The notes under the pieces were generated by a model. The model had not been told where the DNA came from. It did not search any database and saw only the letters and a program-made list of their open reading frames with translations. Both the position numbers and the translations under genes were made by a program. DNA of 20,713 nucleotides from a virus (lineage: Duplodnaviria; Heunggongvirae; Uroviricota; Caudoviricetes): IMG/VR virus record IMGVR_UViG_2537562021_000003, positions 1 to 20,713 of that record. One strand, given 5' to 3'. Shown here piece after piece: positions 1 to 20,713 of the stretch; position 1 is the stretch's first letter; every line of letters begins with the position of its first letter.

Positions 1-30
1 GAGTTGAACCCGCGTCCGAAATTCCTACAT
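1..30 (-). other. Attachment-site core: 3'-terminal segment of tmRNA gene ssrA, truncated by the window edge
   Basis: Bases 1..30 are identical to 19331..19360, which is the inner part of the 45-nt ssrA 3'-end match at 19316..19360. Confidence 0.7.
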
Positions 31-1192: not shown

Positions 1193-2224
1193 TTACATGT
1201 TATTCGACAAGTATATAAAGTTCAAAGGGTTTTTCGTTACTGCATCTTCCAGATGGTCTGGAGAAAAATGGGCGTAAATCATCGTCATTTTTATATCGGC
1301 ATGGCCCAAAATATCGCGCAGTACCAGTATGTTTCCGCCGTTCATCATGAAATGGCTGGCGAATGTATGGCGTAGAACGTGGGGGCATTGTCCCTCTGGC
1401 AGTTCAATACCAGCTCGTTTTACTGCCCGTTCAAAGGCTTTTCTGCATGGGGTGAATAGCCTTCCTCTGTTTTTAGGGAGTTCGTTGTAAAGATCCTGAG
1501 ATATTGGCACGGTACGGTTTTTCTTGCCCTTCGTCTTGGTATAAGTGATGCGGTATTTGGATAACTGATGGCCCTGCAGATTTTCTGCTTCACTCCACCG
1601 TGCGCCAGTAGCTAGGCATATTTTTGCAATCATTAGTAAGCTAGGGCTTTGAGATTCAGCACATGCCGCCAACAGGCGCTTGATTTCGTCCGTGGAAAGA
1701 AAAGCCAGCTCACCTTCGGCAATTTTGAAGGTCGGAAGTCCTGCCAGCGGGTTTGGTGCTGACCAGTGTCCTAGTTTTTTTAATGTACCGAACACCGATG
1801 ATAGATTGCGCTGTTCAAGGTTTACCGTGCGGGGCTTAACGGGCGACATAAGCGTGCCATCTTCATTTCGTATTTCACCTTTTAACCGTGCTTCGCGGTA
1901 TTTCGTAAAGTCTCCGGCTGTCAGCTCAGAGGCGATGGGGTCGCCTAGACCATTACAGATAATTCTAAGTTTCGCCATGAGGCGCTTGGGGTCTGCGAGT
2001 GTCTGACCATACAGGGAATACCAAAGCTCAATTAATTCTGATAGGCGTCGCCGATCATCCTTTTCACCCAACCACGGTTTTTTATTCACTTCTTCCATTG
2101 TGAAGCTTTCAAACGCAATGGCTTCGCCTTTCGTGGCAAATTGCTTACGCACGCGCTTGCCATTGCGTCCATTGGGATAGCACTCACACAACCATTTTCC
2201 GTTCGGCTGTTTTCTGATGGTCAT
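1193..2224 (-). CDS. int: Tyrosine recombinase, P2/186-type phage integrase
   Basis: 343 aa; C-terminal HVLRHTFASHF...LGHADIKMTMIYAHF fits the H-x-x-R...Y catalytic motif. ATG at 2224 lies 1 nt after the cI stop. Confidence 0.9.
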   Translation of the reverse strand: MTIRKQPNGKWLCECYPNGRNGKRVRKQFATKGEAIAFESFTMEEVNKKPWLGEKDDRRRLSELIELWYSLYGQTLADPKRLMAKLRIICNGLGDPIASELTAGDFTKYREARLKGEIRNEDGTLMSPVKPRTVNLEQRNLSSVFGTLKKLGHWSAPNPLAGLPTFKIAEGELAFLSTDEIKRLLAACAESQSPSLLMIAKICLATGARWSEAENLQGHQLSKYRITYTKTKGKKNRTVPISQDLYNELPKNRGRLFTPCRKAFERAVKRAGIELPEGQCPHVLRHTFASHFMMNGGNILVLRDILGHADIKMTMIYAHFSPDHLEDAVTKNPLNFIYLSNNM

Positions 2225-2225
2225 A

Positions 2226-2858
2226 TCAAAGGCTCTTAATGATTTTCAGTGCGCGGCCTACTACCTCAATGTCATCCAGACCGCACTCAAACGATGAATC
2301 ATCCTGATGCACTACTAATTTGTTTCCCGGGAGTCGAGTCAATTTAACGATGCTTTTTATCCCGTCGATATCGACTAACCACATACCATTTACTGGTGGT
2401 GTTTGGTTGCGATCTATTAAATAAGAATCACCAGAAGTAGTCACCAGCAGTAGGTTGCTTGAGTCTGAGGGGAGTATGCTGCTATCAATGATTGCTTTTC
2501 CAGCATCGACCAATAAACCACCGTTGAGAGTCGCCTTGTCAATTTCAGGAGATACTAGTTCAGAAAGAGGTACAACCTTGCTGGAGTTCACGGAATTGAT
2601 ATTTTTTTTAGGTTCAATGTTTGGACCTGGCTCCCCCTGTCCGGTGGTTAGCCACAGTAAAGAAACTCCTGTTTCCAAGGCGCACTGAATCACCCACTCT
2701 GCAGGAAAACTATCTCTTAAGTATCTGTTTGCCATGGTGCTTTTTGATGCGCCTAAGTGATCGCAAAGTTGCTGTCTGGACTTGAAATCATAGGCTGCCA
2801 TTAGTCTATGGATAGCCTCTCTTCCCCCTGTATTCTCTCCAACCTTTACCTGTATCAT
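2226..2858 (-). CDS. cI: 186-type CI immunity repressor
   Basis: 210 aa; N-terminal AYDFKSRQQLCDHLGASKSTMANRYLRD...CALETGVSLLWLTTGQGE looks like the CI-repressor HTH. Divergent from the pR operon and directly upstream of int. Confidence 0.75.
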   Translation of the reverse strand: MIQVKVGENTGGREAIHRLMAAYDFKSRQQLCDHLGASKSTMANRYLRDSFPAEWVIQCALETGVSLLWLTTGQGEPGPNIEPKKNINSVNSSKVVPLSELVSPEIDKATLNGGLLVDAGKAIIDSSILPSDSSNLLLVTTSGDSYLIDRNQTPPVNGMWLVDIDGIKSIVKLTRLPGNKLVVHQDDSSFECGLDDIEVVGRALKIIKSL

Positions 2859-2977: not shown

Positions 2978-3220
2978 ATGAGCACTGATATTTCAATTCG
3001 TGTACCAAAAGAGATGGCTACGCCTGCAGAGTTCGCGGAATGGGAAGGTATCTCCCGCGGCTCCGTGTATCAAAAAATTCACCATGGTCAGCTTGCTAAA
3101 TACATGGTCAAGAAAGAAAAAAACAAAGGCCGCGTAAGCCTGCGTTATTTAATGTACAAAACCGATCAGGTCCGTGAATCCCTCGGTCATTCCAACTTCC
3201 GCGTCATTGTTGGTAAGTAA
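2978..3220 (+). CDS. apl: Apl/Cox-like excisionase-regulator (first gene of the pR operon)
   Basis: 80-aa basic protein at the apl/cox position; SD GGGAGA at 2963..2968. Call is positional. Confidence 0.5.
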   Translation: MSTDISIRVPKEMATPAEFAEWEGISRGSVYQKIHHGQLAKYMVKKEKNKGRVSLRYLMYKTDQVRESLGHSNFRVIVGK

Positions 3221-4803: not shown

Positions 4804-5657
4804 GCACCATCCTGAAATGGGCGGGAAATAAAACCGCCATTATGTCCGAACTGAAAAAACACCTTCCTGCTGGCCCGCGACTGGTTGAACCTTTCGCGGG
4901 TTCCTGTGCTGTGATGATGGAGACGGATTACCCCAGCTATCTGGTTGCGGATATTAATCCTGATTTAATCAACCTCTATAAAAAGGTTGCTGCTGATTGT
5001 GAATCGTTTATATCTCGCGCTAGAGTTTTATTTGAGATCGCAAACAGGGAGGTGGCTTATTACAACATAAGGCAGGAGTTTAATTACTCCACTGAAATTA
5101 CTGATTTCATGAAAGCGGTATATTTCCTGTATCTCAATCGTCACGGTTACCGTGGTTTATGTCGCTATAACAAGAGCGGGCATTTCAACATTCCCTACGG
5201 TAATTATAAAAATCCGTATTTCCCTGAAAAAGAAATTCGCGCATTTGCAGAAAAGGCCCAGCGAGCAACGTTTATCTGCGCCAGCTTTGATGAAACGCTG
5301 GCGATCTTGAAGGCGGGGGATGTGGTGTATTGCGATCCGCCGTATGACGGTACGTTTTCCGGCTATCACACTGATGGTTTCACTGAAGATGACCAGTATC
5401 ACCTGGCATCTGTTCTTGAACATCGGTCATCAGAAGGACATCCGGTCATTGTTTCTAACAGTGACACATCCCTGATCCGTTCGCTGTATCGCAATTTTAC
5501 TCACCACTACATCAAGGCAAAACGCAGCATCGGTGTGGCAGCTGGCGAGGGTAAATCAGCAACAGAAATCATTGCTGTTTCCGGGCCGCGCTGCTGGGTG
5601 GGATTTGATTATTCGCGTGGCGTGGATAGTTCTGCCGTGTACGGAGTACGTGCATGA
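4800..5657 (+). CDS. dam: DNA adenine methyltransferase (Dam-like, orphan)
   Basis: [17 protein letters not shown] and the DPPY motif in [11 protein letters not shown] at 4800 with SD GGAGGTG; ATGA overlaps with the neighbours on both sides. The track's longer ORF starts at 4740. Confidence 0.85.
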
Positions 5658-8068
5658 GCCATGCCGATATGAACAACTGCTGCGGCTTTAACGAGGCTGC
5701 CGCATCGTTCTCATGGAACAGCCCGAAAAAGGCCATTAACCCTTATCTGGACCCGGCGGAAGTTGCGCCGGTTTCTGCGCTTTCAAACCTGATCACTCTG
5801 TACGCTGCCGATAACGAGCAGGAACAGCTGCGCCGCGAGGCACTGAGTGATCAGGTCTGGGAGCGTTATTTCTTTAATGAATCCCGTGATCCTGTCCAGC
5901 GCGAAATGGAGCAGGATAAGCTCATTAGTCGGGCAAAGCTGGCGCATGAGCAGCAGCGTTTTAATCCAGATATGGTCATTCTGGCGGACGTCAATGCCCA
6001 GCCTTCCCATATCAGCAAGCCGCTGATGCAACGTATTGAATACTTCAGCAGCCTGGGCAGGCCAAAGGCTTATTCCCGCTATTTGCGTGAGACGATTAAG
6101 CCATGTCTGGAACGACTGGAGCATGTACGCGACAGTCAGCTATCCGCTTCTTTTCGCTTTATGGCAAGCCATGAAGGGCTGGATGGCCTGCTTATCCTGC
6201 CTGAAATGAGTCAGGATCAGGTGAAGCGCCTGTCTACCCTTGTCGCTGCGCATATGAGCATGTGCCTTGATGCAGCTTGTGGTGATTTGTATGCCACCGA
6301 TGACGTTAAGCCAGAAGAAATCCGCAAGACATGGGAAAAGGTGGCAGCGGAAACCCTGCGTCTGGATGTTATCCCGCCTGCGTTTGAGCAACTCCGTCGG
6401 AAAAGAAACCGCCGTAAACCCGTGCCCTATGAACTCATTCCGGGTTCGCTGGCGCGTATGTTGTGCGCTGACTGGTGGTACCGGAAATTATGGAAGATGC
6501 GTTGCGAATGGCGGGAAGAGCAGTTGCGCGCTGTCTGCCTGGTCAGCAAAAAAGCATCTCCTTATGTCAGCTATGAAGCCGTGATGCATAAACGTGAGCA
6601 GCGCCGTAAGTCGCTGGAGTTTTTCCGTTCTCATGAACTGGTGAACGAAGACGGCGACACGCTGGACATGGAGGATGTGGTAAACGCCAGCAGCAGCAAC
6701 CCTGCGCATCGCCGCAATGAGATGATGGCCTGTGTTAAAGGTCTGGAACTTATCGCGGAAATGCGCGGTGACTGCGCCGTTTTCTACACCATCACCTGTC
6801 CGTCACGTTTCCATTCCACGCTAAATAACGGCAGACCCAACCCGAACTGGACAAATGCGACGGTAAGACAAAGCAGTGATTATTTGGTCGGCATGTTTGC
6901 TGCATTTCGTAAGGCGATGCACAAAGCCGGATTGCGCTGGTATGGCGTGCGGGTGGCTGAGCCGCATCATGACGGTACAGTTCACTGGCACCTGTTGTGT
7001 TTTATGCGCAAAAAAGACCGCCGCGCCATCACTGCATTACTGCGTAAGTTTGCCATCCGTGAAGACCGCGAGGAGCTGGGCAATAACACGGGGCCGCGCT
7101 TTAAGTCTGAGTTGATTAACCCGCGCAAAGGAACGCCGACAAGCTACATCGCGAAATATATCAGTAAGAACATTGACGGGCGTGGTCTGGCTGGCGAGAT
7201 CAGCAAGGAAACGGGTAAATCCCTGCGTGATAACGCTGAATACGTGAATGCCTGGGCGTCTCTGCATCGTGTTCAGCAATTCCGCTTCTTTGGCATTCCG
7301 GGGCGTCAGGCTTACCGTGAACTGCGATTGCTGGCTGGTCAGGCGGCAAGGCAACAGGGTGACAAAAAAGCAGGTGCGCCGGTACTGGATAACCCGCGCC
7401 TTGATGCAATCCTGGCTGCTGCTGATGCTGGTTGTTTTGCCACCTACATCATGAAGCAGGGCGGCGTACTGGTTCCCCGTAAATATCACCTCATCAGAAC
7501 TGCTTATGAAATCAACGAAGAGCCGACCGCCTATGGCGATCACGGCATTCGTATTTATGGCATCTGGTCACCTATTGCAGAGGGCAAGATCTGCACTCAT
7601 GCCGTGAAGTGGAAAATGGTTCGTAAGGCCGTTGACGTTCAGGAGGCGGCAGCCGACCAGGGCGCTTGCGCCCCTTGGACTCGTGGCAATAACTGTCCCC
7701 TTGCTGAAAATTTGAACCAACAGGAGAAAGATAAATCAGCTGATGGGGACCCCAGAACGGACTTTACCCGCATGGATGACAAGGAGTTGCACGATTACCT
7801 GCACAGTATGAACAAAAAGGAGCGCCGGGAACTGGCTGCAAGGTTACGTCTGGTGAAACCGAAACGGCGTAGAGACTACAAACAGCGAATTACAGACCAT
7901 CAACGACAGCAGCTCGTCTATGAACTGAAATCCAGAGGATTTGATGGCAGCGAGAAAGAGGTCGATTTACTCCTTCGCGGCGGCAGTATTCCGTCAGGAG
8001 CAGGCCTGCGTATCTTCTATCGGAACCAGCGTTTGCAGGAAGATGATAAGTGGCGGAACCTGTATTAA
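5654..8068 (+). CDS. A: Replication initiation endonuclease, P2 gene A / 186 RepA family
   Basis: 804 aa; [22 protein letters not shown] and YIAKYISK match the HUH/tyrosine rolling-circle signatures of gpA. Confidence 0.85.
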
Positions 8069-8420: not shown

Positions 8421-8654
8421 ATGCGCATTGAAATAATGATCGATAAAGAGCAGAAGATTAGCCAGTCTACCTTGGACGCCCTTGAATCCGAGCTTTACCG
8501 CAATCTGCGCCCCCTGTATCCCAAAACGGTAATCCGTATCCGTAAAGGTAGCTCTAACGGTGTGGAACTGACCGGACTGCAACTGGACGAAGAAAGAAAA
8601 CAAGTGATGAAAATTATGCAGAAGGTGTGGGAAGACGACAGCTGGCTGCATTGA
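8421..8654 (+). CDS. DinI-family protein
   Basis: 77 aa; MRIEIMIDKEQ...IRKGSSNGVELTGL...VMKIMQKVWEDDSW parallels E. coli DinI as I recall it. SD GAGGTG at 8409..8414. Confidence 0.75.
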   Translation: MRIEIMIDKEQKISQSTLDALESELYRNLRPLYPKTVIRIRKGSSNGVELTGLQLDEERKQVMKIMQKVWEDDSWLH

Positions 8655-8767: not shown

Positions 8768-9445
8768 ATGAAAATTAATAATGTAGCGTTACCAATATCT
8801 CTTGCTGTAATCCTAACTGGTTGCGTGCCACATGCTTCTAACCGAAATATCACTGCTATTGAAGTGGTGAAGCCTGCTATTGGGCAAAGTGCTACCGCCT
8901 ACATGGGCGATCCCATTATCACATCTGCTACTGGATTTAAAACGGACGTACTAGAACTTGGTGCGGCTAATGGTGCATTGTCTTCTATCGCTGCTGGTAC
9001 ATATTGCAGTGAGGGGAATGGAATTTACCGCAATTATCATAACCCTCAAGCTGTTGCGTTAAAAAATCTCTATGGGCAAATCGGTAACTATGTTGATTAT
9101 GTTAGTTACGATGCTGCAAAAAATGAGATATCACCGCCAAATGGTACTTCTTATACTGCATCAGAAATTTCTATCAAACGTGTTCCTGATGGGCTGTGTC
9201 GAGTTAGTAACTCATTGGTTAAGACTATCGAATACAATGGAAATGCAGGCGGTGTAATGAAGTTCACCTATCGTGAATTTGCAAACGATATGGCTCGTGC
9301 AGCATTTACAACAGATTTTTCTGTAGATTCTAAGGGAAGTGACGTTATCGCTTACAAAGGTGCCAAGTTCAAAGTGAACAAGGCTGATAACTCGTCTATT
9401 TCTTATACAATTATTTCTGGCTTTGACAAGGCTGTCACGTTCTAG
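8768..9445 (+). CDS. Lipoprotein of unknown function (cargo)
   Basis: MKINNVALPISLAVILTGC is a signal peptide with lipobox LTGC; AT-rich codon usage. The track's upstream start at 8714 lies inside the terminator hairpin. Confidence 0.65.
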   Translation: MKINNVALPISLAVILTGCVPHASNRNITAIEVVKPAIGQSATAYMGDPIITSATGFKTDVLELGAANGALSSIAAGTYCSEGNGIYRNYHNPQAVALKNLYGQIGNYVDYVSYDAAKNEISPPNGTSYTASEISIKRVPDGLCRVSNSLVKTIEYNGNAGGVMKFTYREFANDMARAAFTTDFSVDSKGSDVIAYKGAKFKVNKADNSSISYTIISGFDKAVTF

Positions 9446-9548
9446 GTTTCACGCTTACTGAGTATGTTACGATTTTGCACATTCTGCATAAACGCGCATG
9501 TCTATGCTGCATGAGATCGCATGATCGTTTGAGGATCTTTTGTGTTAA

Positions 9549-9574
9549 GGCCCGCCAGTTCTGGCGGGCTTTTG
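9549..9574 (+). terminator. Intrinsic terminator downstream of the lipoprotein gene
   Basis: GCCCGCCAG / CTGGCGGGC 9-bp inverted repeat followed by TTTT. Confidence 0.6.
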
Positions 9575-9618
9575 CGTAGATCATGCAGGTGCATGAAAAC
9601 CACTACATAAAGCGGGCA

Positions 9619-9637
9619 GGCGTGGCGGGGATACGAG
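9619..9637. other. cos-like packaging site (P2/186-type cohesive-end sequence)
   Basis: GGCGTGGCGGGGATACGAG: the first 13 nt match the 186 cohesive end as I recall it (GGCGTGGCGGGGAAAGCAT). GC-rich patch between accessory genes and the portal gene. Confidence 0.45.
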
Positions 9638-9864
9638 CGCGCGCCGCGGGTTGAAATAGTAAAATTCACTTAGCCTCAGGCCCGCTGATGGTTTTCTTCT
9701 GAAAGGGAGGGCGCGTTTTTGTGCAATCTTGTTTGAAGGGATTTAAATAAATGTTGAATGTGTTCCGGAGTTGGCTGTAGATTTAGTGTTCTGCCACAAG
9801 TTGCAGTGATAGGTAGCAAACCTTTAAAAGGTTCTGCTATTGTTTCATTAAAGATTTATAGTCT

Positions 9865-10464
9865 TTGTCCGAAAATGACATTAAAGTAGTCGCCTTTAAT
9901 GTCGTAAGCATGAAGGACAGAGAATTGAACTTAGAGCAGATTGCCAGTCAAAGTATAAGTAACCTTCAGTTTCTCCTCGATACTTTGAAGATGCCGTTGG
10001 CTGTTGGTCCAATCAGTGATGAAGACTATGTGATCCTGACCACAGGATACGCTCAGCTAGAATGGGATTATGGTTTTTCTCGGTTTGGCAATCGAAGTGA
10101 TAAGTTTGAATTTTGTTTGAAGCTCCTTGCGGGGCCACTTAGGCATATCCCTTCTGGCGCAGCTATGTGCACCTTTGACGAGGACGCTGGAGTCATAGAG
10201 ATCCATTTTGTGGAATCTTTTGTGAAAGATGATGACGTAGAGCACCCTCTTTACGGCAACATGTTCATGGTTACATTGTGGGCGGTATATCTTTTTGGTA
10301 GCGCGGTTGGGTGTCAAGAGATTCGGATCCCTGAAGCCCTGAATCAAAAAGTTGCTGACCACTATAAAAAATTTGGTTTTAAAGGTGATATAAGCTTGCT
10401 TTCGGCACCTTTTGCTACAATAACTGATGTAGTAAGACGCTACATTACTTCTAAGAAACAGTAG
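9865..10464 (+). CDS. Hypothetical cargo protein; C-terminus possibly GNAT-like
   Basis: 199-aa ORF from TTG 9865 (or 184 aa from ATG 9910); no strong SD for either. IRIPEALNQKVADHYKKFGF resembles GNAT motif B; no clear motif A. Confidence 0.5.
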   Translation: MSENDIKVVAFNVVSMKDRELNLEQIASQSISNLQFLLDTLKMPLAVGPISDEDYVILTTGYAQLEWDYGFSRFGNRSDKFEFCLKLLAGPLRHIPSGAAMCTFDEDAGVIEIHFVESFVKDDDVEHPLYGNMFMVTLWAVYLFGSAVGCQEIRIPEALNQKVADHYKKFGFKGDISLLSAPFATITDVVRRYITSKKQ

Positions 10465-10474
10465 ATAAATTTTT

Positions 10475-10496
10475 GCGCAGTGCTACAATGCTGCGC
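10475..10496 (+). promoter_or_regulatory. Extended -10 promoter (TGCTACAAT) inside a 6-bp-arm inverted repeat
   Basis: GCGCAG (10475..10480), TGCTACAATG, CTGCGC (10491..10496), about 50 nt upstream of the 59-aa ORF. Confidence 0.45.
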
Positions 10497-10543
10497 CAAA
10501 CATCCACCACCGGATGATGAGGCTTGACCTCTAAGAGGAAATC

Positions 10544-10723
10544 ATGACTATGACGCATAGTGACAAGAAAGCTCAGAAGCATTACTCAGTATCTGATGTT
10601 TTCAGCCGTATGGGCGTCGCGATGGAAGAACTACTTCAAGCGGCCCCACATATGATGCAGGACTGCAAATTTGAAGGAAATGAGCTGCATGGTAAGCTCA
10701 AAGAAAAGCAGAAAGCTGCTTAA
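10544..10723 (+). CDS. Small hypothetical protein (59 aa), not in the ORF track
   Basis: My own translation: MTMTHSDKKAQKHYSVSDVFSRMGVAMEELLQAAPHMMQDCKFEGNELHGKLKEKQKAA. SD AAGAGGA at 10533..10539; terminator follows. Confidence 0.5.
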   Translation: MTMTHSDKKAQKHYSVSDVFSRMGVAMEELLQAAPHMMQDCKFEGNELHGKLKEKQKAA

Positions 10724-10747
10724 TTCCATGAAATGCGTTTTGCATGA

Positions 10748-10771
10748 AGCCCGGTAATACCGGGCTTTTTT
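10748..10771 (+). terminator. Intrinsic terminator between the convergent 59-aa ORF and Q
   Basis: AGCCCGG TAATA CCGGGCT followed by TTTTTT. Confidence 0.7.
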
Positions 10772-10778
10772 ATGCTTG

Positions 10779-11816
10779 CTAGTCAGTATTAAGCTCATAT
10801 GGATTGAATCGGACTACCTCTTCACCAAGCCATTCATTTAGCTCCAGCAATCGCTTTTGTAACGGTACTATTTCGTTTCTTGTGAAGACGCGACTGGCCT
10901 TTTCCACATCCCCAAAACCGCCGGTATTGTTGGGAATGATACCCATCATTTGCGGCGGCACACGATGCGCCGCCATCATGTCGTCCCGGCTCACGTTCTT
11001 GATATTCAGGAACTCATCCTTCGCCGCCACTTCTGACAACGGGATAATCTGAAGCCCATCCTTTTTGCCGTTAGGCGAGTACATAAACAGGTTACGGAAG
11101 TTACCAGGACCTTTGGCACTTTTCATTGCGTTGCGGAGGTTGTTCACATCCTCCTGGTTCTGCGCGGCGTCGGTCATGTACATGATGAAGCCCGCATGGC
11201 TGCCGTTAATGTAATACTTCCGGCGGAACAGCGTGGCGGACTCGTTGAGCAGGGCTGACGGAATGGCAGAAAGATAACCGGGCAGGCCGTAGATCTCCTG
11301 GTTGATGTCCGGCTCCATCAGATGAAAAATGCTGCCTTTCGTGAACTGATACGGCTGGGTTGTCATACCGTATTGCACAAACCAGTAGGTATCCAGGTCT
11401 AACCCGCGTCGGGTGTATTTTGCCAGAGCAGGCTCAAGGGCTATAACTTCACCGAAGCGGTTCGTGCGTTTCTCCAGGTAGGCGTTACCAAAAACCAGAA
11501 AGTCCTGTACAAAACGCGAAAAAGCCTGCTGGCTGAGCAGCGGGTGAGGGATGTAGGTGCTGGTCAGAATGTTGCACTTCACTGCAATCGGTGAGCTATG
11601 ATGTATGGCGGCGCGGAAGGTTCGCGCCAGTCCGTCGAAACTCACAGGCAGCTCATACCAACGATCCATCTGTACGCATTCCACATAGTCCAGCAGTTCG
11701 CGGCGGTCCAGAACAGGAACGGGATCACCGAAGCTGAATGCTTCGGCTGAAGTCTGGCTTTTATGCTGGATCTGTTTCGTCGACGCAGCGCGGTTCTTCT
11801 TACTCTTTCCCATCAA
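10779..11816 (-). CDS. Q: Portal protein, P2 gpQ family
   Basis: 345 aa (P2 Q is about the same size), directly followed on the same strand by the terminase ORF. Confidence 0.8.
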   Translation of the reverse strand: MMGKSKKNRAASTKQIQHKSQTSAEAFSFGDPVPVLDRRELLDYVECVQMDRWYELPVSFDGLARTFRAAIHHSSPIAVKCNILTSTYIPHPLLSQQAFSRFVQDFLVFGNAYLEKRTNRFGEVIALEPALAKYTRRGLDLDTYWFVQYGMTTQPYQFTKGSIFHLMEPDINQEIYGLPGYLSAIPSALLNESATLFRRKYYINGSHAGFIMYMTDAAQNQEDVNNLRNAMKSAKGPGNFRNLFMYSPNGKKDGLQIIPLSEVAAKDEFLNIKNVSRDDMMAAHRVPPQMMGIIPNNTGGFGDVEKASRVFTRNEIVPLQKRLLELNEWLGEEVVRFNPYELNTD

Positions 11817-13000
11817 AAAATCTCCACAATATTGCTGGTATTGGCGGACTCGCCCTGCAGCGGTTCGTTAAACAGTGCGTGCATTGTTGCCCAGGCCAGA
11901 TCGGCATGGCTGGCTTCTTCGCTGCGGCTGGCTTCATAGGTCGGGCGGTTGCCACTGGCAGTGGTAGCGCGACGGATTGCCATAAATGACTGCGCAATGT
12001 CGGTGTGCCCGGCGTCAAACTCCAGGCGGCGGTGGCTGATAATGTCGTAGGCCTTGAGTACCAGGGCGTTTTTAACGTTGGGGTTGTAGACAAACTCCCG
12101 GACGGCAGGAAAAAACGCTTTCACGTTCTCGTAAACCCCGTGACCGACGCCGGTCGAGTCGATGCCGATATAGGTCACGTTATACTGTTCGGTCAGTTTT
12201 TTGATGGCGTCAGCCTGGGCGCGAAAGTCCATTCCGCGCCACTGGTGACGCTCAAGAATGCGGAACTTGCCGCCCGGCACGGCTGGCGGAGCCACCACCA
12301 CGCATCCGGCGCTGTCACCGTTTTGCGTACCTTTTGCCGGGTCATAACCGATCCACACTTCGCGCCAGCCAAACGGGCGCAGCGCCAGTGCATGAAAGTC
12401 GGTCCAGACTTCCCAGCTGTCCACCATGCACGCCTGCAGCTCGCTGAGCGGGAACACGGACGCGAGATCGTCCACGAACTCACACATCAGCAGGTTCTGG
12501 TATTCGTCCGGGCTGTACTCCATGCGCAACTGGTCAAGGTCGAACAGGTTACAGCCGCCGCGCACCGCATCTTCCACAGTGACTATCTGGCGGTACTGCC
12601 CGTCTGCGCACAGCAGGCCGGGGGCCAGATTGCTGTGGGACAGGTCGATGTCCACCTTATCGGCTTTGTTGCGCCCTCGGTTGAACAGCGCACCGGACCA
12701 GAACGGATAAGCACTGTGTGTCAGGCTGGATGGCGTGGAAAAATAGGTTTGTCGCCATTTTTTGTGAATAGCCATACCGGAAGCCACTTTGCGCAGCTCC
12801 TGGAATTTCGGTATCCAGAAATATTCATCCAGATACAGGTTGCCGTGGTAACTCTGGGCCGTGCGGGCATTGGTGCCGAGGAAGTACAGCGTGGCCCCGT
12901 TAGGAAGCACCATCGGATCGCCTTTCAGCTCCACCTCCACTTCTTTGGCGAAGTCGATGATGTACTGCTTAAAGACGTGGGCCTGAGCCTTGCTGGCGGA
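11813..13000 (-). pseudogene. P: Terminase large subunit (gpP) remnant lacking its N-terminal part
   Basis: About 395 codons of protein-like reading frame with a Walker-B-like LYLDEYFWI but no Walker A; a full gpP (about 590 aa) would have to start near 13585, which is occupied by FII/E coding sequence. Confidence 0.7.
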
Positions 13001-13256
13001 AAGGAAAATCTGGTTACGCCCGGTTACCGGAGAAGTGCAGGCCGTGGAGCTTGTGGTGCGTGGACGTCACAAAGAAGTGGATTCCGGCGAGTGGAAGACG
13101 GGCGAAAGCAACACCACCAAAGTGACCAGTACCAACAGCTACGCGAAGCTGACCATCAATGGTGAGGTGCTCTATGAAGTGGACCTTATCAACATGGTGG
13201 AAATTGTGGACGGTGTGGACCTGATGGAAGCGCACCGCAACGCCCTCGGCCTCTGA
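12987..13256 (+). pseudogene. Tail tube (gpFII) C-terminal fragment
   Basis: ...TGEVQAVELVVRGRHKEVDSGEWKTGE...INGEVLYEVDLINMVEIVDGVDLMEAHRNALGL resembles the FII C-terminus; in-frame stop at 12984..12986 and no N-terminal half. Confidence 0.55.
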
Positions 13257-13310
13257 TATATCTGAACGGCGCGGGATACCGCGCCAGAACCCAATTTACA
13301 GGACAGCAAA

Positions 13311-13613
13311 ATGAACGATAAGCAGACTGAAAAGACCATTCAACTGGATACCCCCATCAAGCGCGGTAAAACAGAAATCACCGAAATTGTGCTGCGTAAA
13401 CCGCAGTCCGGTGCGCTGCGCGGTACACGCCTGCAGGCCATTATGGATATGGATGTAAACGCGATGATGACCGTGATCCCCCGCATCTCCAGTCCGGCAC
13501 TGACTGCACAGGAAATTGCAGAGATGGACTCGGCAGATCTCACTGCCATGTCGGTTGAGGTTGTCACTTTTTTGTTGAAGAAGTCGGTGCTTGCAGGTTT
13601 ACCGACAGCCTGA
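13311..13613 (+). CDS. E: Tail assembly chaperone gpE
   Basis: 100 aa directly upstream of the tape measure gene; heptamer T_TTT_TTG at 13568..13574 near its 3' end. Confidence 0.8.
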   Translation: MNDKQTEKTIQLDTPIKRGKTEITEIVLRKPQSGALRGTRLQAIMDMDVNAMMTVIPRISSPALTAQEIAEMDSADLTAMSVEVVTFLLKKSVLAGLPTA

Positions 13614-13747
13614 CGGTTGATGATCTGGTGGCAGATATCGCCACCATTTTTCACTGGCCGCCATCCGTTACTGACGTTATGCCGCTGACCGAAGTGCTGG
13701 AATGGCGGTATAAAGCGATTCAGAGAAGCGGGGCCAACGATGAGTGA
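13311..13747 (+). CDS. gpE+E' product of a -1 programmed frameshift
   Basis: After the slip at 13568..13574 the -1 frame stays open to TGA at 13745..13747 (...MPLTEVLEWRYKAIQRSGANDE), overlapping the T start. Confidence 0.6.
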
Positions 13748-16700
13748 TAATAACCTGCGCCTTCAGGTCATTCTTAATGCGGTTGACAAACTCACCCGCC
13801 CATTCCGTGCTGCACAGGCCAGTTCGAAAGAGCTGGCTGGCGCAATTCAGAATACCCGAAACAGCCTCAAAGAACTGAATAAGCAGGCTGGCAGAATTGA
13901 TGAATTTCGCAAGACGCGCTCGCAACTAGCCATAACAGCCAACAACCTGAACGCAGCCCGCGAAGAGGCGGCAAAACTCGCCACACAATTTGCTGCCACT
14001 AACAGGCCAACCGCCGCGCAGGCAAAGTTATTCAGTCAGGCCAAAACACGAGTGCAGGAACTTCAGCAGACCTATAACGGCTTGTTGGGGGCGGTCCAGA
14101 GACAACGTCAGGCACTTAAAGAATCAGGGATTGATACCAGACAACTCAGTAGTGCCCAGCGAGAACTTAAGAAAAATGCTGAAGAAACAAGGCAGGCACT
14201 GGAGGGCCAGCAAAAAGCACTTAAACGTCTGGGTGAACAACAGGCACGGATGAACGCTGCCAGAGAACAATACTCAAGACGGCTTGAAGTGCGCGATCGC
14301 ATCGCAGGAGCCGGAGCCACTACCACGGCTGCAGGGCTGGCAATGGGTGCGCCAGTGATGGCGGCAGTAAAAAGCTATACCAGCATGGAAGATGCCATGA
14401 AAGGTGTGGCAAAGCAGGTCAATGGTCTGCGTGACGATAATGGCAACCGCACTGCACGTTTTTATGAAATGCAGGATGCCATCAAGGCTGCCAGCGAACA
14501 GTTGCCGATGGAAAACGGTGCGGTGGACTTCGCTGCACTGGTTGAAGGTGGTGCGCGCATGAACGTCGCAAACCCTGACGACAGCTGGGAAGACCAGAAA
14601 CGTGACCTGCTGGCCTTCGCCAGTACGGCAGCAAAGGCGGCAACAGCCTTTGAGCTGCCAGCGGATGAACTGTCAGAAAGTCTGGGGAAAATCGCCCAGC
14701 TCTACAAAATACCTACCCGCAATATTGAACAGCTCGGCGATGCGCTGAACTATCTGGATGATAACGCCATGTCGAAAGGGGCGGACATCATTGATGTGAT
14801 GCAACGTCTGGGCGGTGTGGCTGACCGTCTGGATTATCGTAAAGCGGCGGCACTGGGTTCCACCTTTCTGACACTGGGCGCTGCGCCGGAGGTTGCAGCC
14901 AGTGCAGCAAACGCGATGGTGCGTGAATTGTCCATTGCCACCATGCAAAGCAAGAGTTTCTTTGAAGGGATGAATCTGCTGAAACTCAATCCTGAAGTGA
15001 TTGAAAAGCAGATGACGAAGGATGCGATGGGAACTATCCAGCGTGTGCTGGAGAAGGTGAACGCACTGCCGCAGGACAAGCGTCTGTCTGCCATGACCAT
15101 GTTGTTTGGTAAAGAGTTTGGTGATGACGCGGCGAAACTGGCAAACAACCTGCCGGAACTGCAGCGCCAGCTAAAACTGACAGCGGGCAATGATGCGCTC
15201 GGTTCCATGCAGAAAGAATCCGACATCAACAAAGACTCACTTTCTGCTCAGTGGTTGCTGGTCAAAACCGGAGCGCAGAACACCTTCAGCAGCCTGGGCG
15301 AAACGCTGCGCCAGCCGCTGATGGATATTCTGTACACGGTGAAAAGCATCATGGGGGCGTTGCGCCGCTGGGTGGAAGCTAACCCGGAACTGACAGGCAC
15401 ACTGATGAAAGTAGCGGCTGTTGTGGCTGCGGTTACCGTAGGCCTCGGCACCTTAGCGGTGACGCTGGCTGCAGTGCTGGGGCCGCTGGCAGTCATCCGT
15501 CTGGGATTCTCTGTGCTGGGTATCAAAACGTTACCTTCCGTTACGGCAGCAGTAACACGAACCAGCAGCGCGTTGTCCTGGTTAGCTGGCGCTCCACTGG
15601 CACTGCTGCGACGCGGGCTTGCTTCATCGGGCAACGCAGCGGGTTTACTTACTGCGCCGTTGTCGTCTTTGCGCCGTACGGCATCACTGACGGGAAATGT
15701 CCTGAAAACTGTAGCAGGTGCGCCGGTTGCACTTTTGCGGTCTGGATTATCCGGTTTACGTGCTGTTGCTGTGATGTTTATGAATCCTCTGGCGGTACTG
15801 CGCGGTGGACTGGTCGCCGCAGGCACGGTGCTGCGAGTACTGGCATCTGGTCCACTGGCGATGCTGCGCGTTGCCCTGTATGCCGTATCTGGTCTGTTAG
15901 GTACTCTGCTCAGTCCGATAGGTCTTGTGGTTACTGCACTGGCAGGCGTGGCGCTGGTTGTCTGGAAATACTGGCAACCCATCACCGCATTTCTCGCTGG
16001 TGTGGTGGAAGGATTCAAAGCGGCGGCAGGTCCCATCAGTGCAGCATTCGAACCACTTAAGCCTGTGTTTCAGTGGATTGGCGACAAAGTGCAGGCGTTG
16101 TGGGGCTGGTTTACTGATCTGCTGACGCCCGTTAAGTCGACCTCTGCCGAACTGCAGAGCGCAGCGGCAATGGGGCGACGATTTGGGGAGGCACTGGCGG
16201 AAGGGCTGAATATGGTCATGCATCCGCTGGACTCCCTGAAATCCGGCGTTTCCTGGTTGCTGGAGAAACTCGGCATTGTCAGTAAAGAGGCTGCAAAGGC
16301 GAAACTGCCGGAAAGCGTGACGCGTCAGCAACCTGCGACGGTGAATGCAGACGGTAAAGTGATGATGCCATCGGGTGGTTTTCCGTCATGGGGATATGGC
16401 TTTGCGGGGATGTATGACAGCGGCGGCTATATCCCGCGCGGGCAGTTCGGCATTGTCGGTGAAAACGGGCCGGAAATTGTCAACGGTCCGGCAAACGTGA
16501 CCAGCCGGAGAAATACCGCTGCACTGGCTGCGGTTGTCGCCGGAATGATGGGAGTTGCTGCCGCGCCAGCAGAGCTTCCACCGTTGCATCCTTTGGCGCT
16601 TCCCGCGAAAGGCGGTGAAGCGATGGTGAGTCGCGTAGCTGCTGTGCCGCCCGTTCACCGGATTGAGGCACCGACGCAGATCATCATCCAGACGCAGCCA

Positions 16701-16817
16701 GGACAAAGTGCGCAGGATATTGCGCGGGAGGTGGCACGCCAGCTTGATGAACGTGAACGCAGGCTGAAGGCAAAAGCCAGGAGTAACTACAGCGATCAGG
16801 GGGGATACGACGCATGA
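13740..16817 (+). CDS. T: Tail tape measure protein gpT
   Basis: 1025 aa, helical N-terminus, Ala/Gly/Leu-rich middle, at the T position after E/E'. Confidence 0.85.
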   Translation: MSDNNLRLQVILNAVDKLTRPFRAAQASSKELAGAIQNTRNSLKELNKQAGRIDEFRKTRSQLAITANNLNAAREEAAKLATQFAATNRPTAAQAKLFSQAKTRVQELQQTYNGLLGAVQRQRQALKESGIDTRQLSSAQRELKKNAEETRQALEGQQKALKRLGEQQARMNAAREQYSRRLEVRDRIAGAGATTTAAGLAMGAPVMAAVKSYTSMEDAMKGVAKQVNGLRDDNGNRTARFYEMQDAIKAASEQLPMENGAVDFAALVEGGARMNVANPDDSWEDQKRDLLAFASTAAKAATAFELPADELSESLGKIAQLYKIPTRNIEQLGDALNYLDDNAMSKGADIIDVMQRLGGVADRLDYRKAAALGSTFLTLGAAPEVAASAANAMVRELSIATMQSKSFFEGMNLLKLNPEVIEKQMTKDAMGTIQRVLEKVNALPQDKRLSAMTMLFGKEFGDDAAKLANNLPELQRQLKLTAGNDALGSMQKESDINKDSLSAQWLLVKTGAQNTFSSLGETLRQPLMDILYTVKSIMGALRRWVEANPELTGTLMKVAAVVAAVTVGLGTLAVTLAAVLGPLAVIRLGFSVLGIKTLPSVTAAVTRTSSALSWLAGAPLALLRRGLASSGNAAGLLTAPLSSLRRTASLTGNVLKTVAGAPVALLRSGLSGLRAVAVMFMNPLAVLRGGLVAAGTVLRVLASGPLAMLRVALYAVSGLLGTLLSPIGLVVTALAGVALVVWKYWQPITAFLAGVVEGFKAAAGPISAAFEPLKPVFQWIGDKVQALWGWFTDLLTPVKSTSAELQSAAAMGRRFGEALAEGLNMVMHPLDSLKSGVSWLLEKLGIVSKEAAKAKLPESVTRQQPATVNADGKVMMPSGGFPSWGYGFAGMYDSGGYIPRGQFGIVGENGPEIVNGPANVTSRRNTAALAAVVAGMMGVAAAPAELPPLHPLALPAKGGEAMVSRVAAVPPVHRIEAPTQIIIQTQPGQSAQDIAREVARQLDERERRLKAKARSNYSDQGGYDA

Positions 16818-17299
16818 TGATGGTGCTGGGATTGTACGTGTTTATGCTGCGCACCGTTCCGTATCAGGAACTGCAGTATCAACGCAGCTGGCGACATGCG
16901 GCAAACAGCCGGGTAAACCGTCGTCCGTCCACGCAGTTTCTGGGACCGGACAACGACATGCTGACGCTTTCCGGTGTTCTTATGCCGGAGATAACGGGCG
17001 GCAGGCTGTCGTTGCTGGCTCTGGAGCAGATGGCAGAACAGGGAAAAGCATGGCCCCTGATTGAAGGCAGCGGCACGATTTACGGCATGTATGTGATTGA
17101 GGGACTGAATCAGACTAAAACGGAGTTCTTCCGCGACGGTATGCCGCGCAGGATTGAGTTCACCCTGTCGCTAAAACGCGTGGATGAATCCCTGCCCGAT
17201 ATGTTCGGTGATCTCAGTGCGCAACTGAATAATCTGCAGGGAACGGCAACATCTGCCTTAAGCGATATCAGTAAAACGGTGGGAGGGCTGCTGTCGTGA
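16814..17299 (+). CDS. U: Tail protein gpU
   Basis: 161 aa, start overlaps the T stop; P2 order T-U-D. Confidence 0.75.
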   Translation: MMMVLGLYVFMLRTVPYQELQYQRSWRHAANSRVNRRPSTQFLGPDNDMLTLSGVLMPEITGGRLSLLALEQMAEQGKAWPLIEGSGTIYGMYVIEGLNQTKTEFFRDGMPRRIEFTLSLKRVDESLPDMFGDLSAQLNNLQGTATSALSDISKTVGGLLS

Positions 17300-18396
17300 A
17301 TTTCAGCTCTGAACTGCTTAACAAAGGCAACAAAACTCCGGCATTCAGCATCAGTATTGAAGGCAGGGATATCACCACTGTGCTGGACAACCGCCTGATG
17401 GGGCTGACGCTGACGGATAACCGGGGCTTTGAAGCGGACCAGCTTGATCTGGAGCTGGACGACGCCGATGGAAAAATCGTGCTGCCGCGCCGTGGTGCGG
17501 TCATTACGCTGGCGCTGGGCTGGAAGGGGCAGCCGCTTTTCCCGAAAGGGGCATTCACGGTGGACGAGATTGAACACACTGGCGCACCGGACCGCCTGAC
17601 TATCCGGGCGCGAAGTGCTGATTTTCGTGAAACGCTGAATACCCGTCGTGAAAAGTCGTGGCACAAGACCACCGTTGGGGAAGTGGTGAAGGAAATAGCT
17701 GCGCGGCACAAACTGAAGATGGCATTGGGTAAAGACCTGTCAGATAAACCCGTGGAACATATAGACCAGACCAATGAGAGTGACGGCAGTTTTCTGATGC
17801 GGCTGGCGCGACAGTACGGTGCCATCGCGTCGGTGAAAAATGGCAATCTGTTATTCATCCGGCAGGGACAGGGCAAAAGCGCCAGCGGTAAACCTCTGCC
17901 GGTGATCACTATCACACGCAAGGACGGCGACAGTCACCGCTTTACCCTGGCAGATCGCGGAGCCTATACGGGCGTAATTGCCAGTTGGTTGCATACCCGC
18001 GAACCCGCGAAGAAAGAAAGCACCACGGTGAAGCGTAAGCGCAGGACCGCAAAGCAGAAGAAAGAGCCGGAAGCGAAGCAGGGCGATTACCTGGTGGGTA
18101 CGGATGAAAACGTGCTGGTACTTAATCGCACTTATGCCAACCGGAGCAACGCTGAACGGGCAGCGAAAATGCAGTGGGAACGCCTGCAACGCGGCGTTGC
18201 GTCATTCTCGCTACAACTGGCGGAAGGTCGGGCAGATCTCTACACGGAAATGCCAGTGAAAGTCAGTGGCTTTAAACAGCCGATAGATGATGCGGAATGG
18301 ACCATTACGACTCTGACACATACCGTCAGCCCGGATAACGGTTTTACAACCAGTATTGAACTCGAAGTGAATATTGATGATCTTGAAATGGAATAA
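17296..18396 (+). CDS. D: Tail protein gpD
   Basis: 366 aa, start overlaps the U stop; followed by ogr as in P2. Confidence 0.75.
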   Translation: MNFSSELLNKGNKTPAFSISIEGRDITTVLDNRLMGLTLTDNRGFEADQLDLELDDADGKIVLPRRGAVITLALGWKGQPLFPKGAFTVDEIEHTGAPDRLTIRARSADFRETLNTRREKSWHKTTVGEVVKEIAARHKLKMALGKDLSDKPVEHIDQTNESDGSFLMRLARQYGAIASVKNGNLLFIRQGQGKSASGKPLPVITITRKDGDSHRFTLADRGAYTGVIASWLHTREPAKKESTTVKRKRRTAKQKKEPEAKQGDYLVGTDENVLVLNRTYANRSNAERAAKMQWERLQRGVASFSLQLAEGRADLYTEMPVKVSGFKQPIDDAEWTITTLTHTVSPDNGFTTSIELEVNIDDLEME

Positions 18397-18464
18397 AGTG
18401 TTCTCAATATTGATATTTTGTGTATCATTACAATGATTCTGATAGCAAAGGTAGGGATCTGGAT

Positions 18465-18683
18465 ATGATGAATTGTCCGAAGTGTGGTCATGCGGCGCAC
18501 ACAAGGAGCAGTTTTCAAGTAACAGAAAGCACCAAAGAGCGTTACTGCCAGTGCCAAAATATTAACTGCGGGAGCACTTTTGTTACCCATGAAACAGTGG
18601 TCCGGTTTATTGTGACACCTGCATTGATTGCTACAGCCCCTCCACATCCATTACCAGGTGGTCAGGGGCATATGAATTTTTGA
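18465..18683 (+). CDS. ogr: Ogr/Delta-family zinc-finger late transcription activator
   Basis: MMNCPKCGHAAHTRSS...TKERYCQCQNINCGSTFVTHETV...PHPLPGGQ parallels P2 Ogr (about 72 aa, CxxC...CxxxxC). Upstream part of the track ORF is non-coding. Confidence 0.85.
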   Translation: MMNCPKCGHAAHTRSSFQVTESTKERYCQCQNINCGSTFVTHETVVRFIVTPALIATAPPHPLPGGQGHMNF

Positions 18684-18690
18684 GAAAGAG

Positions 18691-18714
18691 AACCTGCTAC
18701 GGCAGGGTTTTATT
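18691..18714. terminator. Hairpin between convergent ogr and the WYL/BRCT-like gene
   Basis: CCTGC TACG GCAGG followed by TTTTATT on the + strand. Confidence 0.45.
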
Positions 18715-19192
18715 CATCTGGGATCTCACCCGTTTCAAGAAAATGTATAAAGCCAGGCTCATCTATGATGATTGTGCCTTTCATCCTGGCTGCCGATACT
18801 TTTGATGGGCCTGCATTGTAACCGCAACAGAGCATCTGAAGGCTTTGGGTTACAGAGGTTCTTACCGTTAATCCTTGTTCATTCGCCTTATCAACCAATC
18901 TTTCTTTATCTGCTTTCTTAAATCCGGTGAAGCACACATCGAATGTATTTTTTTTCGGACCAGACTGCTTAGTGAGATGTGAGTAGTTTTCGGGGAGGAA
19001 TGACGCGCATTCCTGAATGGCTTGTTCTGGTGAATCGTACTGTTTAAGAATGCGGTCTTTTCGGAAGGTTTTTATTCGATCGGTGTTCTTACAAATGCCC
19101 TGTATATGATTTTCGCTATAACTGATGCTCTGTATAGAGTGAACAGCGATACGACCATTTGCATTGATGTAAACAAAGTGAAGTTCTTCCAT
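18710..19192 (-). CDS. Cargo protein with WYL-like N-terminal motif and BRCT-like C-terminal domain
   Basis: 160 aa with SD AAGAGG 6 nt upstream. CFTGF...GLTVRTSV...GPSKVSAARMKGTIIIDEPGFIHFL parallels the LigA BRCT domain as I recall it; N-terminal G-x-C...RIKTFRKDRI resembles the WYL-domain end signature. Confidence 0.6.
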   Translation of the reverse strand: MEELHFVYINANGRIAVHSIQSISYSENHIQGICKNTDRIKTFRKDRILKQYDSPEQAIQECASFLPENYSHLTKQSGPKKNTFDVCFTGFKKADKERLVDKANEQGLTVRTSVTQSLQMLCCGYNAGPSKVSAARMKGTIIIDEPGFIHFLETGEIPDE

Positions 19193-19315
19193 GTGAAACC
19201 TCTTTGCATGATTTCAAGATGGCGACAGGCAAGATGGACGAAAAAGTCTGTCGCCATTTTGCCGCCACTACCAAAGAAAAAGGGGCTACGCTTTCACGTA
19301 ACCCCTTGATTTATT

Positions 19316-19360
19316 TGGTGGAGCTGGCGGGAGTTGAACCCGCGTCCGAAATTCCTACAT
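19316..19360 (-). other. Attachment-site core: 3'-terminal 45 nt of ssrA (tmRNA), not a complete gene
   Basis: TGGTGGAGCTGGCGGGAGTTGAACCCGCGTCCGAAATTCCTACAT is the reverse complement of the E. coli tmRNA 3' end (recalled); the match stops at 19361 where AT-rich phage sequence begins. Confidence 0.75.
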
Positions 19361-19486
19361 ACTATTTTTAATACAATGAAAACAGTAGTTTGCGTTTAAA
19401 AACAGTGTGTTACTATTATCCTGTGTTTATCCGTTTTACGCATTTTTAATGCTCTGCCGCCAAGTTGTCGCCAATTTTAGGCTAAC

Positions 19487-20500
19487 TTACGGTTGGCTGT
19501 TTTTAACATTCAAAAGAAAGTTCTTCCAAATTATTAGCAGTGAATTTTTATCTAAATCAATCTTATGAGGTTTGATGTTTTTTCCTTCATATATATTTTT
19601 ATAATAGCAATCGATAGCAAAATGAATAGTTAAATTATCTGGATGTATGGCTAGTAGACCTCGGTCAAGCAAGGCATGAAGGGTAGGTTCAAGAGGTATT
19701 CCATTGTTGGTTCTATGGTTTTGGGTCTGAGAAAATGGTTCAAGGTGACATGCCTGCAATACTGGGAGGTTGTAACCTGTTATTGCGCATACATTTGAGA
19801 AGTTTTTTAGAACCCTTTTTTTAAAGTCAACCTGTTCGCCAGAGTCACGCTGTAATACTGTTTGCAGATGAGTATTGCCTTTTGTGACAACTGGTATACT
19901 AATTGTATCAGAGGGATTTATAAATATGACTGGCGGTAGAGTAGGTTCTAGAATGTTTTTTTGTCCAAGAAACTGCCTTGATAATAATTCATCTTTAGCG
20001 ATTTTTATTGCTTCACTTTTTGTTAATGAAAGGCATGCCAGATTATACGCATCTACATTGAAATATTTAGTTTCCCTGTTTAGCGTAATGGATGATATTT
20101 TTTTATCGTGTTCTGCTATTGGTATACCTTTTGTGACAGGATGCGAAATGCTTTCAAGCAGTGTTGTATTGCCATTTATTTCTTTATTAAACAATGAGGT
20201 AGGGTGTTCAATCATATTGCTATGCTTGGCGCGATAGTGCTCATATAGGCCATGAGCACTTTTGAAATTTTTCTTGCATATTATACAGCTAACATTTCCC
20301 CCATTAATTTTTTTTGAATTTCTTTTTCTGGATTCAACAAGAGAGTTTGTTAGATCTTCTCTTAGTTTTAATATTCTGAGGTTGGTTGGGTTGTTTCCTC
20401 GTCTATATGGTAAGCTCTCAAGTCTATTTAACTCATTTTTGAGGTGTTGGTACTGTTTACGTGAAATTAAATTAGGTTTCATATTTAAGATTAAGATCAC
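19487..20500 (-). CDS. Second copy of the zinc-finger/HNH-like nuclease gene
   Basis: Identical 337-aa translation to 157..1170. Confidence 0.6.
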   Translation of the reverse strand: MILILNMKPNLISRKQYQHLKNELNRLESLPYRRGNNPTNLRILKLREDLTNSLVESRKRNSKKINGGNVSCIICKKNFKSAHGLYEHYRAKHSNMIEHPTSLFNKEINGNTTLLESISHPVTKGIPIAEHDKKISSITLNRETKYFNVDAYNLACLSLTKSEAIKIAKDELLSRQFLGQKNILEPTLPPVIFINPSDTISIPVVTKGNTHLQTVLQRDSGEQVDFKKRVLKNFSNVCAITGYNLPVLQACHLEPFSQTQNHRTNNGIPLEPTLHALLDRGLLAIHPDNLTIHFAIDCYYKNIYEGKNIKPHKIDLDKNSLLIIWKNFLLNVKNSQP

Positions 20501-20522
20501 TTTTGTGTACTTACATTATAAG

Positions 20523-20713
20523 TTACATGTTATTCGACAAGTATATAAAGTTCAAAGGGTTTTTCGTTACTGCATCTTCCAGATGGTCTGGAGAAAAATG
20601 GGCGTAAATCATCGTCATTTTTATATCGGCATGGCCCAAAATATCGCGCAGTACCAGTATGTTTCCGCCGTTCATCATGAAATGGCTGGCGAATGTATGG
20701 CGTAGAACGTGGG
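20523..20713 (-). CDS. int: Integrase, C-terminal part of a second copy (truncated by window end)
   Basis: Identical to 1193..1383, encoding the catalytic C-terminus. Confidence 0.8.
   Translation of the reverse strand, partial: HVLRHTFASHFMMNGGNILVLRDILGHADIKMTMIYAHFSPDHLEDAVTKNPLNFIYLSNNM

Follow-up and report, generated by a model that had tools for sequence, protein, structure and literature searches.

The 20,713 bp that we analysed (hereafter the window) begin and end with the same 1,383 bp, and this repeat is very probably a single piece of DNA that was written out two times in one complete draft contig. With less assurance, we lean towards a complete account in which the contig loops once round a prophage and writes its first stretch a second time, excised circles of that prophage supplying the attP-type join. 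The prophage itself is integrated at ssrA in Escherichia coli BCE011_MS-01, and the chromosome most likely holds a single copy, a number reached indirectly. Both the phage type from which the element derives by deletion and its attachment site are known, and the case brings nothing new in kind. The main value of the case lies in quality control: a long exact end repeat can mean that a whole draft contig has closed on itself, and such a repeat should be taken for a tandem array or a free circular replicon only when reads support it.

The terminal repeat, the contigs and their break points

The preliminary description had reported an exact repeat at both window ends, and this is what we find: positions 1-1383 are identical, base for base, to positions 19331-20713, and a prefix/suffix comparison together with a repeat search gave 1,383 bp as the longest prefix of the window that matches a suffix. 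Chance origin of an exact 1.4-kb repeat is ruled out. The period is 19,330 bp, and the window comprises one unit plus 1,383 bp, that is, 1.07 units. The left copy of the repeat (1-1383) carries the last 30 nucleotides of an att core, an HNH nuclease gene and the 3' 191 nucleotides of the integrase gene, int; in the right copy (19331-20713) the left-copy DNA stands written a second time. The coordinates and gene assignments given earlier for att core, nuclease and integrase 3' end were borne out by annotation and Pfam.

A complete 45-nucleotide att core is found at positions 19316-19360 (minus strand). Its sequence, TGGTGGAGCTGGCGGGAGTTGAACCCGCGTCCGAAATTCCTACAT, equals the 3'-terminal 45 nucleotides of ssrA in reverse complement, and the identification with the ssrA 3' end follows from an exact run-on into the annotated tmRNA gene, seen in contig 87 of the assembly that contains the window as well as in the closed genome WS4437A-1. 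Since merely these 45 nucleotides of ssrA are present, tRNA/tmRNA and Rfam scans of the window were empty, with no intact tmRNA or tRNA. Phage DNA does lie on both sides of the internal core, as had been noticed before: to the left is the ogr/BRCT-like side of a P2/186-like prophage, and to the right its HNH-nuclease/integrase side. This is an attP arrangement, with the core between the right and left ends of the element, and it is also the internal junction by which a head-to-tail array is recognized. The left copy of the core is partial (1-30, minus strand, core bases 16-45): the window opens at core base 16, and the first 15 nucleotides of the core (19316-19330) fall outside the repeat. The window start is situated exactly 30 nucleotides ahead of the point where phage and ssrA diverge, an offset that we count against our preferred explanation. 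No short att-like repeat was found that would account for the right window end.

The window is the entire contig APXM01000251.1 (20,713 bp) of draft assembly GCA_000356285.2, without flanks; the two are identical over 9219-20713, which is the part of the contig that was fetched. BCE011_MS-01 is an enterotoxigenic (ETEC) ST10 E. coli, a clinical isolate from Bangladesh (run SRR446827). A 50-amino-acid open reading frame spans the junction (19219-19371) and is possible only when ogr side, core and HNH side are contiguous; its exact look-up in an index of 153 billion genes gave one contig, APXM01000251.1. As an exact pattern, the attP-type junction had no match in viral, metagenome and species-representative genome contigs, and no plasmid record of PLSDB corresponds to the unit as a replicon. 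The data are listed as 100-bp HiSeq 2000 reads assembled with Celera Assembler, and the authors state that contigs with anomalous coverage were removed by Celera. A sister study from the same centre used LB overnight cultures, 300-bp inserts and more than 200x coverage.

Host flanks are present in the assembly, on two other contigs. Contig 88 (APXM01000088.1, 3,700 bp) carries attL, with a recombinase gene, the 409-amino-acid integrase of another island, the core, the HNH gene and the end of int; it stops at unit base 1383, exactly where the window has its right end. Contig 87 (APXM01000087.1) carries attR, with host genes, smpB, ssrA, the core and the BRCT-like gene, and stops at unit base 18708. 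The flanks thus reach 1,383 and 653 nucleotides into the unit, and blocks 1-1383 and 18708-19360 each appear in more than one contig of the BCE011_MS-01 assembly. Because attL and attR contigs occur together, the prophage is integrated at ssrA in this strain, and the integrated copy coexists with a source of the attP join; the integration context is that of WS4437A-1. attL and attR have an identical block of 46 nucleotides in common, so that an ogr-to-HNH join requires reads or pairs spanning the block; the attP-type junction is present within the assembled contig APXM01000251.1. By accession number, contigs 87 and 88 are consecutive and the unit contig is 251, which we also count against the preferred explanation.

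The positions at which these contigs end were examined by comparison with the single-copy prophage of WS4437A-1, from which the window differs at three of 19,360 nucleotides (1384, 8472 and 18707). At 1384 (plus strand), directly after break point 1383, the window has G for T, changing GGT to GGG; T is the base in each of the 13 related copies found at the fetched loci. At 18707 (plus strand), directly before break point 18708, the same change is found, with T in all 16 related copies at those loci and a hairpin immediately preceding. The integrase variant created by the G at 1384 occurs in no other contig of the gene index. The third difference, at 8472, is common to another genome, and there is no break there. 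Contig 88 has a sole mismatch with WS4437A-1, again T to G, on the other strand and beside a G run. GGT to GGG is the strongest motif of Illumina systematic error (PMC3295828), and the chance of a random substitution being of this type is about 1%, or about 1e-4 for two of two. Judged from their sequence context, the G calls at 1384 and 18707 are probable Illumina systematic errors. The repeat boundaries coincide with break points of the assembly graph, contig ends 1383 and 18708 having 1384 and 18707 as private neighbours. Since these adjoining bases are error-type differences absent from relatives, the ends of all three contigs, which lie at the att core or beside the two errors, are assembly break points and not biological ends.

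Other origins of the break points were considered. A second related prophage, or two diverged copies, behind the breaks at 1383 and 18708 was rejected, as both private differences are GGT to GGG and WS4437A-1 has one matching place. A k=31 graph vertex or MaSuRCA super-reads would fit the 30-nucleotide start offset; we did not rely on them, the published method being Celera Assembler on raw reads.

We propose that the assembler would have broken the blocks at the two error-prone sites and at the att core, and that contig 251 would then be made of block 1-1383, the interior, the block from 18708 to the core, and block 1-1383 again. Its path would start in the att core, run through the 19,330-bp unit, cross the attP-type junction and go back into block 1-1383, where it stops. 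Surrogate-unitig placement by Celera Assembler may have put the 1,383-bp block in three places. A real tandem would give an identical cyclic assembly graph, and this too is counted against the preferred explanation.

A closed assembly path is usually recognized by overlapping contig ends, and a repeat occupying precisely both ends of a complete record, as here, is what such an overlap leaves. Between tandem copies and a circular form written with overlap, the two options first put forward, it is the overlap that is supported, in an assembly sense. The repeat alone does not imply two copies, because the contig is whole and flankless, its ends are shared with sibling contigs, its breaks adjoin errors and the closed genome is single-copy. 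Inspection of the flanks for a second full unit, as had been suggested, could yield none in a window that is a whole contig with its host flanks on contigs 87 and 88. The scenario of a wrapped record and a single chromosomal copy fits imperfectly as well, since it does not provide for an attP-type junction inside a real contig, in an assembly that also has attL and attR.

Gene content of the 19,330-bp unit

The first genes of the unit are cargo and early functions. Beside att lies a cargo gene for an HNH endonuclease of 331 amino acids (157-1152, minus strand; PF13391 HNH_2, E 8e-11), annotated as WP_001413720.1 and having weak PADLOC HNH matches. It is followed by a tyrosine integrase of 343 amino acids (1193-2224, minus strand; PF24624, PF00589), a 186-type CI repressor (2226-2858, minus strand; PF07022, PF16452) and a Cox/Apl-like excisionase (2978-3220, plus strand), the latter matching phrog_6912 (excisionase) and phrog_575 (Cox-like excisionase and repressor). 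cII, fil and dam are located between the excisionase and the replication endonuclease gpA, which is intact (804 amino acids, 5654-8068, plus strand; PF05840, E 5e-128). In place of 186 Tum is a DinI-like protein (8421-8654, plus strand; PF06183, phrog_189), which we presume, by analogy with phage 186, to be a possible Tum-type SOS-linked antirepressor. Tyrosine integrase, CI/C repressor, Cox/Apl and the rolling-circle initiator gpA, all assigned by Pfam, PHROG and annotation, form a Peduoviridae early region. No partition or satellite-specific genes were seen in the unit, and with this ordinary 186/P2 early region, gpA included, it does not fall among P4-type satellites.

The late region is incomplete. 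Two unknown cargo genes, in the P2 variable region, stand ahead of the portal protein gene (10779-11813, minus strand; WS4437A-1 annotation, PF04860). The adjoining terminase ATPase gene (11813-13024, minus strand) has lost its 5' part: PF03237 is matched only from profile position 67, and PGAP calls the product 'incomplete, missing N-terminus'. Its homology to the full-length relative stops at 13024, and BLAST against the full-length unit of genome ET734 joins reference position 14403 to 29231, placing a deletion junction at 13024..13025. Compared with ET734, about 14.8 kb are missing, comprising scaffold, capsid, small terminase, head completion, lysis, baseplate, fibres, sheath and part of the tube. 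At 13024|13025 what remains of the terminase gene runs directly into the 3' part of the tail-tube gene, after which come E/E', the tape measure (13740-16817), gpU (16814-17299), gpD (17296-18396) and ogr (18465-18683), these retained late genes from 13740 to 18683 being on the plus strand. Between ogr and att lies a BRCT-like cargo gene of 160 amino acids (18710-19192, minus strand), with a match to phrog_2561 and weak BRCT and PDC-S48 matches. What is left of the P2/186 late region is therefore Q, a 5'-truncated P, a tube fragment, E/E', T, U, D and ogr. Searching for a P2/186 cos site, with a query sequence that may be wrong, gave no match.

The loss of some 14.8 kb of capsid, lysis and tail genes makes particle formation and cell lysis by the element impossible. 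The unit keeps a full set of genes for excision and replication, whose activity is predicted. The terminase gene looks like a deletion hotspot; this is probably ascertainment, since the search used one exact truncated product.

Origin of the attP-type junction

In the account that we lean towards, the attP-type join would come from a minority of reads, contributed by excised and possibly replicating circles in the overnight culture. Excised circles are favoured because int, the Cox-like excisionase, gpA and the DinI/Tum-like gene are intact. Such circles would be retained, as induced cells would not be lysed by an element that is without lysis and capsid genes. A junction as rare as about 1% would still be represented in the reads when coverage exceeds 200x. 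Contig 251 was kept although Celera drops anomalous coverage, which suggests roughly single-copy depth and argues, weakly, against both a 2x tandem and a high-copy circle. Altogether, this defective P2/186-type prophage of an ETEC isolate probably still excises.

A true tandem, in which the 19.3-kb defective prophage stands head to tail in two or more copies at ssrA and was collapsed by a short-read assembler into a cyclic contig, is in our judgement unlikely. It could originate from a circle integrating into a resident attL or attR, or from Int-mediated or homologous unequal exchange between sister chromosomes, and phage DNA on both sides of an attP-type junction is what arrays contain. That the unit contig is apart from flank contigs 87 and 88 is likewise as for a collapsed repeat. 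However, the contig amounts to 1.07 units with no host flank: a second unit is not seen, nor is a continuous path from flank through two units to flank, and the nearest closed genome, WS4437A-1, has one copy. The break points are accounted for by error sites and not by differences between copies, and the contig was kept under a procedure that, by the authors' account, discards anomalous coverage. A parallel is ET734, one of just four complete genomes that carry the HNH module at 80% coverage or more, where the assembly has three cores, spaced 34,970 and 34,978 bp apart, around two full-length units whose only differences are 20 indel positions; this putative tandem comes from a noisy assembly of long reads in which frameshifts are numerous. 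Other tandem prophages have been described (PMC8112680, PMC9934374).

The junction might instead be a pure artefact, no attP being present in the cells and the ogr-HNH join arising through the 46-bp attL/attR block, either in chimeric library molecules (PCR template switching) or by repeat placement in the assembler. We doubt this. Reads of 100 bp cross the 46-bp block into unique sequence on both sides, making the true paths resolvable; real attP molecules are expected of an intact integrase and excisionase; and no such join occurs in 10 other draft or complete contigs with the HNH module. What speaks for an artefact is that the block is identical in attL and attR, that the presence of 1-1383 and 18708-19360 in more than one contig means that the assembler placed sequence redundantly, that the assembly contains further T to G consensus errors, and that rare chimeras would be sampled at more than 200x. 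Far less credible still is a mainly autonomous circular episome, or a mini-phage or satellite that depends on a complete P2-like helper phage for packaging, of which the contig would be the full circular genome. A direct terminal repeat conventionally indicates circularity, gpA is intact, and portal, tape measure, U, D and ogr are kept, but attL and attR contigs in the same assembly indicate chromosomal integration, and in three other genomes this derivative lies in the chromosome. An isolated circle opened at random would start inside the att core about 0.2% of the time, and the observed start suggests a branch with chromosomal junctions. The element is also absent from the plasmid records of PLSDB, partition and satellite-specific genes were not seen, and the cos search, with its possibly wrong query, was empty.

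A further step, that this capsid- and lysis-less 186-like prophage still excises and then persists as a replicating circle beside the integrated copy, or re-integrates as an ssrA tandem, is possible but improbable. If true, it would mean a higher dosage of the cargo (the HNH nuclease, the BRCT-like protein and the two unknown proteins at the P2 variable region), and the element would be a non-lytic, amplifiable cargo carrier and not a dead remnant. The earlier suggestion that tandem arrays raise cargo dosage is speculation.

Relatives and known systems

In WS4437A-1 the unit is single-copy, with ssrA on one side and another integrase island on the other. Three genomes (WS4437A-1, GCA_017761325.1 and GCA_049980305.1) have this deletion derivative as a single copy beside ssrA. 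In 10 other contigs with the HNH gene, draft and complete, its neighbour is always host ypjA or another island, never ogr. The HNH/int module is present at 80% coverage or more in 4 of 5,426 complete E. coli genomes, including ET734, whose assembled tandem has an internal junction with the same attP arrangement as 19316-19360. Genuine tandem lysogens of this phage type may therefore exist at ssrA. With one of four module-bearing complete genomes assembled as a tandem, ssrA tandems of this phage type are not rare a priori, an observation that is counted against the preferred explanation.

Among phages, Escherichia phage Cartapus has 96% DNA identity to the window over 64% of its length, and its genome record has the same attP arrangement (ogr side, ssrA core, int side), with 93% identity. 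Coliphage 186/P2-like (Peduoviridae) prophages at ssrA have in common with the unit the order int, CI, cox/apl, cII, fil, dam, gpA, tum-like, portal, terminase, E, T, U, D, ogr, att. Unlike Cartapus-type phages, the unit has lost about 14.8 kb, in which the capsid, lysis, baseplate, fibre and sheath genes lie, and it has an HNH nuclease gene between att and int, where Cartapus has none.

Direct terminal repeats that are used as a circularity signature are, like this one, exact repeats at both ends of a complete contig. Here, however, the repeat measures 1,383 bp, far above a k-mer overlap, the block also ends contig 88, and no free replicon is implied, as integrated junctions are found in the same assembly.

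P2 double lysogens are known tandem double lysogens. Together with Stx double lysogens and ET734, they share with the window an attP-type junction between two int/att modules at one site; the record studied here differs in having no second unit or host flank, and the closest closed genome has one copy. For Stx prophages, duplication provides a tandem example (PMC8112680).

Cryptic-prophage excision and tandem lysogeny have both been documented already. Excision-proficient cryptic prophages and islands of the CP4-57 type at ssrA are, like the unit, defective with integrase and excisionase intact. They belong to another integrase lineage, whereas the unit has a P2/186 backbone, and the excision proposed for the unit is deduced from one assembled junction. 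Finally, the unit is joined through another copy of the core to a second integrase island, a feature that it shares with heterologous arrays at the tmRNA gene.

Elements adjoining the prophage at ssrA

The prophage does not stand alone at ssrA. Left of attL lies a second element, joined to it by a further ssrA core copy, in the closed genome WS4437A-1 (L001, 1-6045) and in the attL contig of BCE011_MS-01 (APXM01000088.1; L039, 1-2347). This second element encodes an integrase of 409 aa together with a large serine recombinase and two ParB-like proteins. In both strains, prophage and second element form a heterologous array at ssrA. Within the cluster of the 50-aa junction ORF (window 19219-19371), the ogr-side variants P0006, P0010 and P0012-P0015 depart from the ssrA core earlier and run into other sequences, so that other genomes have different DNA beyond this prophage end, after less core; this DNA may belong to other elements inserted at ssrA.

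Contig ends and their base differences

In window 1-30, phage and ssrA sequences diverge exactly 30 nt after the contig start, which is the last G of the tmRNA T-stem arm, adjoining the T-loop. This offset would be consistent with a vertex of a k=31 graph; the stated assembler, however, is overlap-based. The contig holding the unit is number 251, whereas the attR and attL contigs (APXM01000087.1 and APXM01000088.1) are collinear in orientation and consecutive in accession number. The two could have been scaffolded together, conceivably via attB-spanning pairs from cells that had lost the prophage, or their consecutive numbering could be coincidence.

Three private consensus differences, all T to G (or the complementary A to C), lie at window 1384 and 18707 and at position 1212 of APXM01000088.1. 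All three adjoin G runs, and two of them (1384 and 18707), directly beside contig ends, change GGT to GGG. The integrase variant created by the difference at 1384 was found nowhere else. We consider the three differences to be probable Illumina systematic errors that became fixed in the deposited assembly.

Cargo genes and the terminase truncation

Four genes of the window occupy variable positions of P2-like phages, and anti-phage functions are possible for these cargo genes. They encode an HNH nuclease (157-1152, minus strand; weak PADLOC HNH matches), a 160-aa BRCT-like protein (18710-19192, minus strand; weak PDC-S48 match) and two proteins that match no Pfam family (8768-9445 and 9910-10464, both plus strand).

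The 366-aa product of the 5'-truncated terminase gene (window 11813-13024) recurs in identical form in many P2-like prophage derivatives with different deletions (L023-L032), which occupy two attachment sites. The right end points of these deletions are spread across the entire late region; the left ones lie within about 200 bp of the terminase gene. These derivatives were collected by a search with one exact product, the truncated terminase, so the pattern probably reflects ascertainment bias, though a deletion-prone spot in the terminase gene could also underlie it. No microhomology was seen at the window junction 13024|13025.

A relative assembled as a tandem in ET734

In the assembly of E. 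coli ET734 (NZ_CP100922.1, 1153541-1223489; L002, L033), a close relative is present between ypjA and ssrA as two complete 35-kb copies in head-to-tail order, with three att cores spaced 34,970 and 34,978 bp apart. The two copies differ solely at 20 indel positions, and frameshifts are numerous in this assembly.
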